Shown one piece after another: positions 2,004 through 40,127 of a DNA stretch of 51,134 bases (the stretch's first letter is position 1; the number at the start of each line of letters is the position of its first letter). The stretch lies in IMG/VR virus record IMGVR_UViG_2724679172_000007. One strand, given 5' to 3'. The translations under genes and the position numbers were made by a program. This DNA is from a virus. Lineage: Duplodnaviria > Heunggongvirae > Uroviricota > Caudoviricetes. A model generated the notes under the pieces. It did no database searches. It saw only the letters and a program-made list of their open reading frames with translations, and was not told where the DNA came from.

Positions 2004-3434
2004 TTACGGGTAAGAAATGCTGAACGTTGAAGATTTTACGTTAAGATAAATGAAGTCATTAAAGTAAACAGCATCTTTCATATTTTGTATTGTTATGTCG
2101 TAAGACAGAAACATATCCAGAGACTCTATTACTCGCCAAATATCCTTAACTTTTACCTGTGCATAACATTGCTGGGAATCATCATCACTCTGTAGTAATA
2201 AACTGAATGATGACGAATCACGGCCAAAATTATCTTCCAACGCTGCTTTAATAGCATTTTGAGCATCGTCTATCAGAACATTTTTACGTGCAATACCTAT
2301 AAAATTTATAGTAAATGGCTGTTCATTTGTATCTACATACTCGAACCGCTTGTTCAACTCATTTGGAACATTCTCTAGAGCTTTCAGTATTTCTGATTTT
2401 AGCTGAGACTGGCTTACACCCGGCTTATGTCCGCAAAAGAAAATTTTGTTGATGTTTCGAACGTCAAACCCAGTTATTTTCTCTTGTAACGCTTCGCCCC
2501 AAACGTTCAACCATGAAGTTCCATGAACAACATTCTGAATGAATTGGCGATAATCACCGCCCCATACCACTTGTTCATCGTATGCAACATAATACTGAGC
2601 ACGATTTCGAGTTTCTTCTGTAGTTTCCATACCACTACCACCGGTAATGATCGAATCAGTTTTAAACTCTAGTGACTCCACATATTGAGCGATATTTCCA
2701 GCCGGTTCTAACTTTTGTCCTTCAGCCAAAGTATAGTCGCCAAGGCTAGCCATAACATCGATTCGAACCTGACAGCCTGCTGGAGGCATCATACCCATAG
2801 AACCATCACCAAACTTGACTCCAAGTTGTTCTGTAGGTTTATATGCCAATGAATAGTGCTTACTCTTGTCTCTGGACATTCTAAATAATGGGTTATATGT
2901 CCATTTTTCTTCTACTCCATCTGTAATAACATAAACATCCAGGCTAGAGACTTCTTTTGTTAACTCTCTGGAAAGCAACAATGTCAGAAATAAAGTTTCC
3001 TTCTCAATATCAAACGTAATGCTAACAGCTTCATGCTGTTTAGTTTCTACGCCAGAAACAGTTCCTCCAGCAGGAATTACAACACTGTTAATAATTGCCA
3101 AAGGTGTTTGGTCATTGGCAAGCAATTCAGCCCCGGCTGGTAACGTAATATCCCGATCAGTTTTATTGGTTATAGACGTTGTTCCGTATGAAGCACTAAC
3201 AAATCGCCCTACGTAGCTACGGTCTTCAGCAACCGCTAAAATACTTGAGCGGCGCGTTGCCGTTGAAATAAGTCCCTCAGTGAGGCCGCGACTTGCAAAT
3301 GTACGGGCAATATAAATAAGCTGCGATCCGAATATAGCGTGCATCTGCACAAACTGACTATTTACAAATCGTGACCACCATGTATTTTCATTTAACTTGG
3401 CGTTAAATTTGTCCAGTAATTCTGTAATCGTCAC
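2004..3434 (-). CDS. Baseplate J-like protein
   Basis: 476-aa ORF whose start overlaps the stop of the upstream W-like gene (translational coupling); size and position match the baseplate J/gp6 family. Confidence 0.5.
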   Translation of the reverse strand: MTITELLDKFNAKLNENTWWSRFVNSQFVQMHAIFGSQLIYIARTFASRGLTEGLISTATRRSSILAVAEDRSYVGRFVSASYGTTSITNKTDRDITLPAGAELLANDQTPLAIINSVVIPAGGTVSGVETKQHEAVSITFDIEKETLFLTLLLSRELTKEVSSLDVYVITDGVEEKWTYNPLFRMSRDKSKHYSLAYKPTEQLGVKFGDGSMGMMPPAGCQVRIDVMASLGDYTLAEGQKLEPAGNIAQYVESLEFKTDSIITGGSGMETTEETRNRAQYYVAYDEQVVWGGDYRQFIQNVVHGTSWLNVWGEALQEKITGFDVRNINKIFFCGHKPGVSQSQLKSEILKALENVPNELNKRFEYVDTNEQPFTINFIGIARKNVLIDDAQNAIKAALEDNFGRDSSSFSLLLQSDDDSQQCYAQVKVKDIWRVIESLDMFLSYDITIQNMKDAVYFNDFIYLNVKSSTFSISYP

Positions 3435-3805
3435 GCGCCCACCCCACTTGATTTCTGCATAACAATATCCATGCTCCCACCTTTCGCATAAAAACTAATT
3501 AATAAAGAATCTTCAGAAATTGATGTGCAACGAATCCCTTGCACATCCAAACCTGGCAAGTCTTGTCGTAGTTTTTTCATCATTCTCCCTTCAATAGCCA
3601 CTTCAACTATGTGCGAAGTTTCAGAGCCGAATGGTTCATGCTTAAATTCTTCCATTGGACTCCCCCAAGAGGGTAAACCATAAACACTCCCTTCAGGGGT
3701 TCGTAGCCACTCGTCAAGTCGGGCCATCCATGCTGCGGTACTTCCTTCTGCAATAATGACACCGCTCTCATTCGTTTGAAGTCTTGCGTCTATTTCGTAA
3801 AGCAT
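3431..3805 (-). CDS. Baseplate wedge protein (GPW/gp25-like)
   Basis: 124-aa ORF directly after the tape-measure-like gene and before the J-like gene; size and residue pattern resemble GPW/gp25 proteins. Confidence 0.45.
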   Translation of the reverse strand: MLYEIDARLQTNESGVIIAEGSTAAWMARLDEWLRTPEGSVYGLPSWGSPMEEFKHEPFGSETSHIVEVAIEGRMMKKLRQDLPGLDVQGIRCTSISEDSLLISFYAKGGSMDIVMQKSSGVGA

Positions 3806-22303: not shown

Positions 22304-22546
22304 TGCCTTAATGGTGCCTAATTGGTGTTTATCTGGCACCAGTTAGGTGCTGTTATGGTGCGGTTTTGTATCTGGTTCCAATTTGGGGCTGATTTCGTGT
22401 TAAATAGGATGCAATATAAGGTGTATTTGGTCTGATTGATGTTATACTTTGCCAAACATTCATGACTCCATTATAGAGCCTGTCCCGCATCAAAAAGGCT
22501 CTTATCTGGAACCGTTTTGATACCAAAATCACACCGAGGAACGGAT

Positions 22547-23508: not shown

Positions 23509-23560
23509 CAAAGGTGCACCAATACACCACTAATTTGGTGCACCTTTACATCCTTTTTGG
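23509..23560 (+). terminator. Inverted repeat/terminator downstream of the par operon (possible second centromere-like site)
   Basis: Arms caaaggtgcacc / ggtgcaccttt with a 16-nt loop, followed by a T-run (cctttttgg); the GGTGCAC core also occurs upstream of parA. Confidence 0.45.
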
Positions 23561-23736
23561 TTCCAATTGTGTACCATTTGTCATTAATTTACTTATGCGC
23601 AAAAGTGGGCTTCATGAAAAAGCTCATTATTGAAATAACGATAGAAAGTAATTTCTAATCAACTAGTGGTTGTCAGCCTATTCGGCTTATAAGATCATAC
23701 GCTGTTATACGTAGTTTACGCTTTGAGGAATCCACA

Positions 23737-25354
23737 ATGAGTGAGGCAGAAGCCCGCCCGACTAACTTTATTCGTCAGATCATCGATGAAGATCTGGCCA
23801 GTGGTAAGCACACCACAGTACATACCCGTTTCCCGCCGGAACCGAATGGCTATCTGCATATTGGTCATGCGAAATCTATCTGCCTGAACTTCGGGATCGC
23901 CCAGGACTATAAAGGCCAGTGCAACCTGCGTTTCGACGACACTAACCCGGTAAAAGAAGATATCGAGTACGTCGAGTCGATTAAAAACGACGTTGAATGG
24001 TTAGGTTTTCACTGGTCTGGCAACATCCGTTACTCCTCCGATTATTTTGACAAACTCCATGCCTATGCTGTTGAACTGATCAACAAAGGCCTGGCGTATG
24101 TTGACGAACTGACGCCGGAACAGATCCGCGAATACCGCGGCACCCTGACGCAGCCGGGTAAAAACAGCCCGTACCGCGACCGCAGCGTTGAAGAGAACCT
24201 GGCGCTGTTCGAAAAAATGCGTACCAAATTCACCGTTTATCGTGATGCGCGATCCGGTGCTGTACCGCATTAAGTTTGCTGAACATCACCAGACTGGCAA
24301 CAAGTGGTGCATCTACCCGATGTACGACTTCACCCACTGCATCAGCGATGCGCTGGAAGGTATTACGCACTCTCTGTGTACGCTTGAGTTCCAGGACAAC
24401 CGTCGTCTGTATGACTGGGTACTGGACAACATCACCATTCCTGTTCACCCGCGCCAGTACGAATTCTCGCGCCTGAATCTGGAATACACTGTGATGTCCA
24501 AGCGTAAGCTGAACCTGCTGGTGACCGACAAGCACGTTGAAGGCTGGGATGACCCGCGTATGCCGACCATTTCCGGTCTGCGTCGTCGTGGTTACACTGC
24601 GGCTTCTATTCGTGAGTTCTGCAAACGCATCGGCGTGACCAAGCAGGACAACACCATTGAAATGGCGTCGCTGGAATCCTGCATCCGTGAAGATCTCAAC
24701 GAAAACGCGCCGCGCGCAATGGCGGTTATCGATCCGGTGAAACTGGTTATCGAAAACTACCAGGGCGAAGGCGAAATGGTCACCATGCCGAACCATCCGA
24801 ACAAACCGGAAATGGGGAGCCGTCAGGTGCCGTTTAGCGGTGAGATTTGGATCGACCGCGCCGATTTCCGCGAAGAAGCTAACAAGCAGTACAAGCGTCT
24901 GGTGCTGGGTAAAGAAGTGCGTCTGCGTAATGCTTACGTCATTAAGGCAGAACGCGTGGAGAAAGATGCCGAAGGCAATATCACCACCATCTTCTGTACT
25001 TATGACGCCGACACCTTAAGCAAAGATCCGGCAGATGGTCGTAAAGTGAAAGGCGTTATTCACTGGGTGAGCGCGGCACATGCGCTGCCGGTTGAAATCC
25101 GCCTGTACGATCGTCTGTTCAGCGTGCCGAACCCTGGTGCTGCGGAAGATTTCCTGTCGGTGATTAACCCGGAATCGCTGGTGATCAAACAGGGCTTTGC
25201 TGAACCGTCTCTGAAAGACGCGGTAGCGGGTAAAGCATTCCAGTTTGAGCGTGAAGGTTATTTCTGCCTCGACAGCCGCCATTCTACGGCGGAAAAACCG
25301 GTATTTAACCGCACCGTTGGGCTGCGTGATACCTGGGCGAAAGTAGGCGAGTAA
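23737..25354 (+). pseudogene. glnS: Glutaminyl-tRNA synthetase gene (glnS) disrupted by an internal frameshifting indel
   Basis: The N-terminal ORF (23737..24273; HIGH motif in [12 protein letters not shown]) and the C-terminal ORF (24188..25354; VMSKR motif) are consecutive GlnS pieces in different frames; the frame breaks at 24223-24232, where 10 nt (accaaattca) replace roughly 57 nt of the wild-type sequence as recalled. Confidence 0.8.
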
Positions 25355-25400
25355 TTTTAAGTTCAGTTAGGTTAATAGGTATTTCGCCACATAAAAAAGT

Positions 25401-25427
25401 AAACGCCGCTACTGCGGCGTTTTTTAC
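25401..25427. terminator. Bidirectional rho-independent terminator (glnS / dam convergent)
   Basis: Hairpin cgccgc-tact-gcggcg with an A-run upstream and a T-run downstream. Confidence 0.65.
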
Positions 25428-27950: not shown

Positions 27951-28604
27951 CTATCCTTTCTTGAAATCGAAGTTGCCAGCAGTGGCCTGAAAGGTTCCTC
28001 CTGCCTTGAAAGCTATGTCTCCGTTAGCGGTGACAGCTATATTTTCCCCATTAACATTGATGTTGTTGGCTGATTTGACGTTAACACTCCCTCCTGCATT
28101 CACGATTACATCAGCCGGACCAATGATATATATCTGCCCGGACTCATTCATGCCAATCCTTGAGCCTGCTGCCGTATTGGCAATTTCATAGCCGCCACCA
28201 GCAGTTCGTACTTCAAGAATATTGTTGCGGTGAATAACGAAGTCTTTCGTTGCTGAGATTTGGGGGCGGGGAGGTGCTCCATCTACTTCCGGCGGCGTCC
28301 AGCCGTTGCCTTTGCCAGATGCTTCTGGTGCAACGTTTGGAATTCCTCCCGGTGCATCCTGAGCGGCACCAACTATCATTGGGCGTCTGGTGTCTATTCG
28401 ACCGTTAACATCTAAATAAGGAAACTCTACCCAGACCAGGTCACCTTTGACTGTGGGTACAAAAGCGTTTCCGATGGGTAACAGGTATTCCGCCCAGGGT
28501 AGATCGTCATCAGGAACGCCATTCCAGTCAGGTAAAACACGGACTTGAGCACGCATAAGCCCTGCCGGGTGCACAGTTCCAACAATTTGCGCTCTACGCT
28601 TCAT
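27951..28604 (-). CDS. Baseplate central spike protein (gpV-like)
   Basis: 217 aa; OB-fold-like N-terminal part and a C-terminal Gly/Asn/Val-rich beta-helix repeat (VNAGGSVNVKSANNINVNGENIAVTANGDIAFKAGG). Confidence 0.55.
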   Translation of the reverse strand: MKRRAQIVGTVHPAGLMRAQVRVLPDWNGVPDDDLPWAEYLLPIGNAFVPTVKGDLVWVEFPYLDVNGRIDTRRPMIVGAAQDAPGGIPNVAPEASGKGNGWTPPEVDGAPPRPQISATKDFVIHRNNILEVRTAGGGYEIANTAAGSRIGMNESGQIYIIGPADVIVNAGGSVNVKSANNINVNGENIAVTANGDIAFKAGGTFQATAGNFDFKKG

Positions 28605-38523: not shown

Positions 38524-38738
38524 CAGTGCGCCTCCACGCAGTTCATCGGCAGATTCCAGTAATTGAGGATCTCCATCGCATCAAGAGTGAAGCGAGCAGC
38601 AAAAATGCAGGGTTCTTCGGGAAGGTATGAGCGCGCCTCTGCTTCGGTAGCAGCCATGACGCAGATATACAGGTGTTTTTGGCAGGAATAGAAACGCCAG
38701 ATAAATTCAGAATGAGTTGGGGTAGGGATAGTAGCCAT
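38523..38738 (-). CDS. Hypothetical small protein
   Basis: 71-aa ORF whose stop overlaps the start of the Rha gene. Confidence 0.35.
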   Translation of the reverse strand: MATIPTPTHSEFIWRFYSCQKHLYICVMAATEAEARSYLPEEPCIFAARFTLDAMEILNYWNLPMNCVEAH

Positions 38739-39048
38739 ATTGGCAGCCTCCTTTGACTAAGTTAAGGAGCTACCGCGTGAGGTTCCAATCTCAATGGCGG
38801 TAGCACTGACTGGGTTGGAACTACCGGCGTCAAAGGGAACCGGCCTGCCTTTCGGCAGCCCAGCCAGCACTACCATTGATCTCTGAGCTAAACGCTACGT
38901 ATGGCTGTGCGATGGCATGACACAAAAAAGACGCTTTCGGCGTCTGTGTCGCCTTTGACATTATCCGGGGTTCCAATCCCGGCACCCGTTTTTCTAAGGT
39001 GCCGTAGAAATATACCCCACGATAATGCCAGGGCGCAACAGTCAGTAT

Positions 39049-39216
39049 TTTATGCTTTGGCGGATTTCTTCCGGGCTTGCTTGCAGGCGTAGGCCATTGC
39101 TTTAACTTTCACTTCATCCAGCTTCCCGGTGATCACTTCTTTTCCGGGAGTGACAAACCAGTCATAGCAACCGCCAGTGATGTTCTGGATTTGAAAGTTG
39201 AGGTAGCGAACAGTCA
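39049..39216 (-). CDS. Small ORF (55 aa), hypothetical
   Basis: ATG preceded by SD GGGGGTG; translation MTVRYLNFQIQNITGGCYDWFVTPGKEVITGKLDEVKVKAMAYACKQARKKSAKA; not in the supplied track because it is under 60 aa. Confidence 0.25.
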
Positions 39217-39548
39217 TTTTGACACCCCCGACGCGAGTAAAGAATGCAGATTATCGCGTGAGTGGTGGACGACGAGTGATGGGAAAAGACTGTAGTTGTT
39301 CATAGTGTAGTGACTCCTTGCTTTCGGAGCCGCCATCGACTGTTCCACGGTCTGGTGGCGGCGCAATAAAGGCTGGAACACCGTGAGTCAACGGGGGCTT
39401 TTCAGCCACCTATATTGCACCGCCATAGGTATGACGGCGGCAATAATACGAAAAACTAAACAGTTTGTCTCAAAAAGTTGACCGGTGTGCCAATCGGTAG
39501 TGAATGTACATCGGAGAAATTTACAATTCAACTTAAAATGTTAGAAAA

Positions 39549-40127
39549 TTAATTTATCAATTCAATCGCCATCTGATACAACGTCATTTCATCGGCATTG
39601 TGCCGCATGAAATCTGCTTTTCCGCCTATTTTTCCGTCAGCATGAACAGGGACCAGCCAGGGATATTGTTCTCGGACCTCGGCTGGCGCTGCGTACTGGT
39701 GGTGCCATTTACACAAAGGGAGGACATATTTATGCGCGTTCTCTGCCGTTCTCCCGAAGATATGGTGCAGGGATACCACTGGGCTATGTTGCCCGTGAAT
39801 ATGGCAGGCAATGCAGGGGAGAGCACCGATAGCGGTCTGTATCCGGCGTTCATCGGCTGTGAGTGATCTGCCTTTCAGGCCGCGTGACGTGCGTGTTTTT
39901 TTGGACGGAGCGGATACAGCTTTATCTTTTCTCCGCTGTTCATATTGCTTTGCTTTTTCATTTTTCTTTTGCCGATATTCAGGCGATGCGGCCTTTTCTC
40001 TCGCTCGCTGCTGCTGGCGTTGAGCTTGTTGAAGGCGCTTTGCCCTTTGTTCCTCTCGCCAGGCCGGGTCAGCCAATTTTTGCATGGCTTTTTGTCTCTG
40101 TTTCTCCCAATAACTCTGTTTCTGCAT
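39549..40127 (-). CDS. ref: HNH endonuclease with basic N-terminal region (P1 Ref-like recombination enhancement function)
   Basis: 192 aa; Lys/Arg/Gln-rich N-terminal half, then an HNH-like core (ALPCIACHIHGQHSPVVSLHHIFGRTAENAHKYVLPLCKWHHQ); flanked by operator-like sites. Confidence 0.5.
   Translation of the reverse strand: MQKQSYWEKQRQKAMQKLADPAWREEQRAKRLQQAQRQQQRAREKAASPEYRQKKNEKAKQYEQRRKDKAVSAPSKKTRTSRGLKGRSLTADERRIQTAIGALPCIACHIHGQHSPVVSLHHIFGRTAENAHKYVLPLCKWHHQYAAPAEVREQYPWLVPVHADGKIGGKADFMRHNADEMTLYQMAIELIN

Follow-up and report, generated by a model that had tools for sequence, protein, structure and literature searches.

An IsrK-like leader and a C4-type RNA as a probable immI-type control unit ahead of an icd-antirepressor operon

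Results

The subject of this study is a 310-bp gap, positions 38739-39048, in a 51,134-nucleotide (nt) Caudoviricetes sequence (IMG/VR record IMGVR_UViG_2724679172_000007), and the whole of that stretch is referred to below as the window. The gap holds no credible gene and has strong secondary structure. The neighbourhood genes are all encoded on the minus strand, where they follow one another as a Ref-type nuclease gene, two small open reading frames (ORFs), the gap, an icd-like gene and an antirepressor gene (Table 1). Since every surrounding gene lies on this strand, the gap represents the leader of the icd-ant operon, read as the reverse complement, and minus is its functional strand. The stop codon of icd overlaps the start codon of ant (UGAUG), and the icd-like gene is annotated as Icd-like both in the Escherichia phage-plasmid D6, which is about 95% identical to the window over the region, and in the E. 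coli plasmid NZ_CP117014, which is 99.8% identical across 38739-39548. We propose that 38739-39048 very probably serves a D6-like plasmid prophage as the RNA control unit of its secondary immunity operon, which is of the immI type (P1 c4-icd-ant).

The covariance-model scan that the original prediction had suggested decides the question of what the gap encodes. Two Rfam families were matched on the minus strand over the full length of their models, C4 (RF01695, model positions 1-87 of 87) and isrK (RF01394, positions 1-77 of 77), both above their gathering scores of 45 and 50 bits, respectively. The suggestion that the region may encode a small RNA is therefore borne out, whereas the hairpins on which it was based had been read on the plus strand and had not been connected with icd-ant directly downstream on the minus strand. 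The stem-loops themselves were all found in the sequence where they had been placed. Of these, ctgcc-tttc-ggcag (38845-38858) is the first inner hairpin of C4 and ccggg-gttccaat-cccgg (38964-38981) is the second IsrK hairpin. The T-run that follows the latter forms the loop of IsrK hairpin 1, and no plus-strand terminator was found there by the terminator scan. The statement that no convincing ORF is present was also upheld, since the D6 ORF orf84 is broken in the window and a 39-residue ORF is of unstable length among phages (see below). The region folds better than shuffled sequences (z = -6.1 for the minus strand and -5.4 for the plus strand, with none of 200 shuffles as good). The plus strand folds nearly as well because any strongly paired region behaves so, and a plus-strand reading was rejected because that strand matches no family and has neither a terminator nor an intact ORF.

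The C4 RNA is predicted by single-sequence folding to form a long closing stem around two inner hairpins, and compensatory changes on both sides were found in 16 of its 23 consensus pairs across 10 sequences. By alignment to the annotated 77-nt c4 of P7 the mature RNA is predicted to span approximately 38796-38874 (79 nt). The C4 junctions are compatible with release by RNase P, for which a tRNA-like acceptor stem with a 3' NCCA would be expected, with AU/GG at the 5' end and ...ACCGCCA past the closing stem, both aligned with the ends of P7 c4.

The IsrK-like leader comprises, in order, hairpin 1 (GGCACC...GGUGCC), hairpin 2 (CGGG-AUUGGAAC-CCCG), site a1 and an intrinsic terminator, which on the minus strand reads AGACGC-CGAAA-GCGUCU followed by UUUUUU (gacgc-tttcg-gcgtc in plus-strand letters). 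The leader hairpins are kept in all nine phages that were compared, namely the window, D6, the P1-like phages RCS47 and 673R5, Stx phage F039, SfV, Tyrion, P1 and P7. A further Rfam model, c4-a1b1 (RF03163), scores 22.4 bits on the leader at 38962-39015, below its gathering score of 46.7 bits, and overlaps the isrK match; in P1 and P7 it scores 51.0 and 55.5 bits. Since the isrK and c4-a1b1 models also overlap on one stretch in both P1 and P7, they describe the same kind of leader. Upstream of it we infer a sigma-70 promoter, with transcription predicted to start near G39002. Across 7 related phages the best pair of -35 and -10 elements keeps the same register, with exactly 6 nt between the end of the -10 element and the start of the leader.

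Table 1. Features of the gap and its surroundings in the window
Feature	Positions	Strand	Details
Predicted sigma-70 promoter of leader	39009-39038	-	-35 TTGCGC (39033-39038), 18-nt spacer, -10 TATATT (39009-39014)
IsrK-like leader/small RNA	38924-39002	-	Rfam RF01394 isrK, 62.7 bits
b1 site AUUGGAACC	38969-38977	-	Hairpin 2 loop; exact 7-nt complement (38970-38976) of C4 nt 60-66
a1 site GUCAAAGG	38952-38959	-	Exact 8-nt complement of C4 nt 45-52
Intrinsic terminator of short IsrK-like RNA	38924-38945	-	Terminator scan; matches 3' hairpin of isrK model
C4 antisense RNA	38793-38880	-	Rfam RF01695, 77.1 bits, E = 7.6e-15
a' determinant CCUUUGAC	38829-38836	-	Loop of second inner C4 hairpin
b' determinant GUUCCAA	38815-38821	-	Single-stranded, between C4 hairpin 2 and closing stem
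39-residue ORF on C4 RNA	38757-38876	-	Pfam PF10554 Phage_ASH, 32.2 bits, cut-off 26
Alternative hairpin (predicted)	38769-38804	-	GCUACCGC (38797-38804, 3' strand of C4 closing stem) pairs with GCGGUAGC (38769-38776)
b2 site AUUGGAACC	38781-38789	-	Loop of small hairpin UGAG...CUCA; 7-nt complement at 38782-38788
a2 site GUCAAAGG	38750-38757	-	Overlaps icd Shine-Dalgarno AAGGAGG (38747-38753)
icd-like gene, 71 residues	38523-38738	-	63% identity to P1 Icd, E = 5e-28; phrog_1426
Antirepressor gene, 308 residues	37597-38523	-	Rha-type N-terminus; Pfam Phage_pRha; phrog_63 anti-repressor Ant, E = 1.3e-64
55-residue ORF	39050-39217	-	phrog_7786, function unknown
29-residue ORF, icd remnant	39214-39303	-	ATGA overlap couples it to the 55-residue ORF
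Candidate c4-2 targets	39311-39347	-	UGGAACA (39341-39347), GAGUCA (39311-39316)
Divergent C4-like RNA, c4-2	39351-39430	-	RF01695, 40.2 bits, below gathering score 45
Promoter-like site directly upstream of c4-2	39443-39471	-	GAGACA, 17 nt, TATTAT
Ref-type nuclease gene	39549-40127	-	

The gap carries two pairs of sites that are complementary to C4. The 9-mer GGTTCCAAT, which reads AUUGGAACC on the minus strand, has a core, UUGGAAC, that exactly complements b' of C4 (GUUCCAA), and each AUUGGAACC copy is followed by the motif GUCAAAGG, the exact complement of the C4 loop CCUUUGAC (a'). Complements of C4, of 8 nt for the a sites and 7 nt for the b sites, flank it on both the upstream side (a1 and b1, in the leader) and the downstream side (a2 and b2). 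The a2 site lies on the icd Shine-Dalgarno in 9/9 phages, and in the window AAGGAGG ends 8 nt ahead of the icd ATG (38736-38738). The sequence CCTTTGAC occurs in the window at a1, at a2 and otherwise at the unrelated position 28444 only. The two 9-mers at this locus are RNA-RNA target sites.

Each of the nine phages has its own a' and b' together with complementary a1, b1, a2 and b2, and most of these matches are exact, the exceptions being sites with one mismatch or a G-U pair, such as b2 of SfV and 673R5 and a1 of Stx F039 and Tyrion. The b' determinant reads GUUCCAA in the window, GUCUCAA in D6, CUGUCAA in P1 and CUGCUAA in P7, and the corresponding b sites read UUGGAAC, UUGAGAC, UUGACAG and UUAGCAG, while a' is CCUUUGAC with a sites GUCAAAGG in the window and CCUUUUGC with a sites GCAAAAGG in D6. 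The window and D6 therefore differ in both determinants, by two bases each and at all three positions (a, UGAC versus UUGC; b, UUCC versus UCUC), a difference of the same scale as that between P1 and P7.

A pattern scan of IMG/VR in which the determinant positions were left free yielded 71 further loci with the present C4 backbone, and 75 loci were analysed (the window and our loci L001, L002, L005 and L012-L082). Only two a alleles (UGAC/UUGC) and two b alleles (UUCC/UCUC) were found, in all four combinations, and 72 of the 75 loci showed exact complementarity at a1, b1, b2 and a2 alike. Among the 30 distinct sequences the allele counts are equal at the three positions of each determinant, and 12 of the 25 commonly variable columns in the 272-column alignment fall within the 49 site nucleotides. 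The allele combinations occur on both D6-type and RCS47 (P1-like)-type flanks. The joint change of determinant and target, together with the retention of the C4 pairs, supports RNA-RNA pairing as the selected function.

For the unprocessed 266-nt leader, two competing folds were predicted. In the minimum-energy fold (-112.6 kcal/mol) b1 and a1 are paired in cis with b' and a' (2+7+4+9 bp), the Shine-Dalgarno is paired with UCCUU, and the 3' strand of C4 is taken up in an alternative hairpin that has b2 in its loop. The conformer in which C4 is folded lies 5 kcal/mol higher (-107.6 kcal/mol) and would, according to this model, be the substrate of RNase P. The alternative hairpin corresponds to the gctaccgc...gcggtagc stem-loop of the original prediction; its 8-bp stem, with b2 in the loop, excludes the folded C4. 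The predicted folds of D6, RCS47, 673R5, SfV and Tyrion contain the same alternative pairing built from other sequences, and those of P1 and P7 a shortened version, whereas Stx F039 has the complements CCACCGC/GCGGUGG but a different predicted fold. In the predicted unprocessed fold, the 5' strand of the C4 closing stem is paired to the spacer between the terminator and C4 (GCCA..GCAC..GCCAU, 38901-38916, minus strand), and this may help to keep the precursor in a non-C4 conformation.

The annotations of D6 and NZ_CP117014 call ORFs at the locus and do not list the RNA genes. In NZ_CP117014 (RefSeq; Prokaryotic Genome Annotation Pipeline, PGAP) the 39-residue ORF is called an 'ash family protein'. 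Its counterparts have 14 residues in P1, 15 in Tyrion and 31 in P7, with up to 123 among related phages, and in 673R5, SfV and Stx F039 the frame is fused to the next gene. PF10554 does not behave as a conserved protein-coding gene here, the substitutions following the RNA pairing, and the Ash family looks, at least in part, like a conserved RNA gene read as protein. In each of the nine phages the AUG at C4 nt 5-7 (38874-38876) shares its reading frame with the start codon of the following gene (spacings of 129, 132 and 138 nt), which could be due to chance or be related to the translated orf45 of Salmonella Gifsy-1. The 99-residue orf84 of D6 (plus strand, positions 3364-3663 of its locus L001, equivalent to 38794-39093 of the window) runs antisense to C4 and IsrK, has a stop and a frameshift in the window, and is most likely a spurious gene call.

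The 9-mer GGTTCCAAT is present four times in the window against 0.48 expected. Two copies lie here (38781 and 38969), as the original prediction had noted, and two flank the par operon (22374 and 23559); the link that it drew through the 9-mer to the par operon or its ParG-like protein did not hold, in that D6 keeps GGTTCCAAT at par while its C4 sites read GGTCTCAAT. Since the par copies do not follow C4, the sharing of the 9-mer is a coincidence that is specific to the present allele. A role of the par-flanking copies as C4 targets was ruled out by the same D6 comparison, and GUCAAAGG does not stand beside them either. These copies, at 22374-22382 and 23559-23567 on the plus strand, are in direct orientation and bracket the ParA/ParG-like operon beside GGTGC(A/C)-type repeat clusters. 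They are the same in D6, without relation to C4, and could be part of a centromere, mark a module boundary or have arisen by chance.

A second module lies upstream of the gap, centred on the divergent C4-like RNA c4-2, which was detected with E-values of 1.1e-05 in a 2-kb search and 2.7e-04 when the search covered the whole window. This RNA has a fold of the C4 type and a GCCACCA 3' end, retains the closing stem in an alignment with true C4s, is conserved in sequence in D6-like contigs and is not accompanied by an IsrK-like leader. The candidate target GAGUCA overlaps the AAGGAG ribosome-binding site of the 29-residue ORF. The D6-related S. dysenteriae plasmid NZ_CP026816 (positions 2501-3036 of our locus L006) has the same c4-2 with a promoter-like site GAGACA-17-TAATAT, an intact 61-residue Icd-like gene and the same 55-residue ORF. 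Since an intact Icd-like gene follows c4-2 in this plasmid, the 29-residue ORF is considered to be an icd remnant. The plasmid has a c4-2-type module only, with no antirepressor annotated beside it and neither IsrK nor a full-score C4 found in the retrieved stretch, and the 55-residue protein may be the regulated payload there. In the phage collection D6 alone had a homologue of the 55-residue ORF, and the IMG/VR pattern scan for more diverse c4-2 relatives gave two sequence types only. Complementarity of 6+6 nt was found between c4-2 and the targets of the main module (UGGAAC at b1 and b2, AGUCAA overlapping a2), with no match to the D6-allele target sites evident by inspection.

No further C4 or IsrK copies were found when the whole window was scanned with Rfam at a permissive threshold. 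A weak match to Leu_leader at 25318-25425 on the plus strand (25.2 bits versus a cut-off of 50, E = 0.49) is probably due to chance. When both promoter regions were compared with the remainder of the window for exact 11-mers in common, only scattered single matches appeared, and nothing operator-like.

Discussion

What the sequences show here is that both RNAs belong to known families, that their complementary sites co-vary, and that the genes stand in a given order with overlapping stop and start codons. This is the arrangement described for the immI region of P1, where the antisense RNA C4 controls icd and ant (PMC8198154, citing Citron & Schuster 1990) and is required besides the C1 repressor for ant to stay silent (PMC8198154). 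By analogy with P1/P7 and Gifsy-1, we propose the following mechanism. Transcription would begin near 39002 and proceed through the IsrK-like leader, with b1 in a hairpin loop followed by a1, to the terminator, and transcripts that stop there would constitute a short IsrK-like RNA of about 79 nt. Transcripts that read through would continue into C4 (38880-38793), then b2, a2, icd and ant, and C4 would be excised from them, by RNase P as in P1/P7. Free C4 would pair through a' with a2 and through b' with b2 and so block the translation of icd, and by translational coupling the synthesis of the antirepressor would also be blocked, leaving the prophage repressed. The a1 and b1 sites could act in two ways. 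In cis, in the unprocessed transcript, they would pair with C4 to give an inactive fold, and in trans, as the short IsrK-like RNA, they would act as a decoy, diverting C4 from a2 and b2 and thereby favouring antirepressor production, as does IsrK of Gifsy-1. The a and b sequences would set the specificity and hence heteroimmunity.

Several points weigh against this proposal or parts of it. The putative leader promoter is a weak match (8/12 overall and 3/6 in the -35 element) and was missed by the generic scan. BLASTP found no homology between the antirepressor and P1 Ant1 (E = 0.29), and the P1-type C1 operator (consensus ATTGCTCTAATAAATTT) had 0 matches in the window at up to three mismatches. 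In 673R5, TTGCTCTAATAAATT stands upstream of the module, and an Op(c4) is annotated in P7; control of the present operon by a D6-type repressor is conceivable. With respect to a1 and b1, the Gifsy-1 authors also weighed control of termination at the IsrK terminator (PMC4825925). Furthermore, coupling in Gifsy-1 requires an ORF that overlaps the C4-like RNA and is itself translated (PMC4825925), and as an equivalent 39-residue ORF is present in the window, a coding contribution is conceivable.

It is conceivable that C4 is mainly a transcription-termination factor, like the CI RNA of P4, with a1/b1 directing it to the IsrK terminator and a2/b2 to termination downstream. The a1 site does end just 6 nt upstream of the terminator stem, and such a role has been suggested for the processed STnc1160 of Gifsy-1, where IsrK also resembles seqA of P4 (PMC4825925). 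However, a2 lies directly on the icd Shine-Dalgarno in every one of the nine phages, as would be expected for a translational block, and the terminator scan found no terminator after b2/a2. We therefore consider termination as the principal mode to be rather unlikely, bearing in mind that the two modes are compatible with each other. Biere et al. (1992) reportedly observed that the translational block by C4 in P1 also triggers premature termination inside the operon, which counts in favour of termination. A lower probability still, such that we regard it as improbable, attaches to the possibility that the region is partly or wholly protein-coding, through either the 39-residue ORF or D6 orf84, and that its conservation is that of a protein. 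The PF10554 match and the PGAP annotation, the in-frame AUG within C4, and the translation of Gifsy-1 orf45 with its coupling to the antirepressor (PMC4825925) would all agree with coding. Against this, the 39-residue ORF varies in length or fuses to the next gene and its protein is not conserved, the substitutions preserve base pairs and not amino acids, and orf84 is interrupted in the window, so that the Pfam match is most simply explained as a translated conserved RNA gene.

The original prediction had also offered a cluster of protein-binding sites or a recombination site, and we found no support for either. A GGTTCCAAT cluster held in common with par, bound for example by the ParG-like protein, might account for the excess of the 9-mer and for the two same-orientation copies that flank the par operon. 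However, the copies at this locus change in D6 in step with its C4 while those at par do not, and the core of the 9-mer tracks the b' allele in all 75 loci. Once the explained pair is removed, two more copies against 0.48 expected are not significant (Poisson p about 0.08). As to recombination, a recombinase gene, an inverted-repeat core and the features of an attachment site are all absent, and these possibilities together can be regarded as extremely remote. The RNA control unit of an immI-type operon, as set out above, is hence the interpretation that we favour.

In P1 and P7, heteroimmunity results from small differences in ImmI (PMC6906374). Since the window and D6 differ by two bases in each of a and b, cross-repression is not expected, and on the P1/P7 precedent the window element and D6 should not cross-repress. 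Since a and b sites alternate along the RNA, at least two conversion patches are needed to produce a recombinant allele combination. A broader proposal, which we put forward only tentatively and think on balance doubtful, is a two-tier C4 system in which c4-2 acts on its own operon and could cross-repress icd-ant, with the reshuffling of the main-module alleles into four combinations pointing to selection for new RNA-RNA immunity specificities and to possible cross-immunity between different phage-plasmid families that have an allele in common.

The value of these results lies mainly in annotation, as an RNA switch that would govern antirepressor production, and hence the quiescence of the prophage, is represented in two public records by small hypothetical or 'ash family' proteins. 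The a and b determinants also predict cross-repression of co-resident or incoming relatives. Resistance genes are found on plasmids of both the D6-like and the P1-like kind, which often come together in shared E. coli and Salmonella hosts, and thus the predictions bear on their compatibility. The four-allele pattern provides a clean natural case of co-evolving RNA-RNA specificity.

The P1/P7 immI region has the same arrangement of promoter, a1/b1, C4, a2/b2 on the icd ribosome-binding site and icd coupled to the antirepressor, with a C4 of the same Rfam family, a 63% identical Icd and specificity differences of two bases per determinant. Unlike P1/P7, the window has a Rha-type antirepressor unrelated to Ant1/2, lacks the downstream kilA-repL genes and a P1-type C1 operator, has a leader that fits isrK (62.7 bits) better than c4-a1b1 (22.4 bits), and carries the extra upstream C4-like module. 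The P4 CI RNA with seqA and seqC, compared here by description (PMC4825925), is likewise a processed small RNA located between upstream and downstream copies of its target, and the Pfam 'Ash' family that matches the translation of C4 is named after P4. CI differs in acting through transcription termination and in controlling replication genes.

Salmonella Gifsy-1 IsrK/orf45 (STnc1160)/AnrP shares with the window an IsrK-family leader that has its own terminator, a C4-like segment reached by read-through (predicted in the window) and an antirepressor. Two competing folds are also common to both (again predicted in the window), one of which pairs the central part of the leader with the C4-like segment and conceals the ribosome-binding site. 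The inactive (A) and active (B) structures of isrK-orf45 have been mapped experimentally, and the predicted folds of the window mirror them (PMC4825925). In Gifsy-1 the short IsrK activates antirepressor translation in trans, and the approximately 80-nt STnc1160 is processed from the C4-like segment (PMC4825925). The binding of Hfq by IsrK, together with this trans activation, is known from the Gifsy-1 experiments only (PMC4825925). The window differs in having icd between C4 and the antirepressor, whereas in Gifsy-1 the ORF that overlaps C4 is itself the coupling ORF; the host effects that Gifsy-1 exerts via the AntQ antiterminator are irrelevant to the window element.

The closest relatives are the immI-like regions of D6 and the D6-like plasmid pYU39_89, for the latter of which homologues of c4, icd and the antirepressor gene have been reported along with another c4/icd-like region (PMC6799933). 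The gene order is the same as in the window and the identity to D6 is about 95%, with both specificity determinants differing from those of D6. The kind of system is hence already known, since family models exist and homologues have been reported for D6-like plasmids, and our understanding of the mechanism of C4-type immunity is unchanged by these results. What is added is the exact anatomy of the control unit, a pair of determinants that are both unlike those of D6, the four-allele pattern on two backbones, and the finding that C4 has been mis-annotated as a protein.

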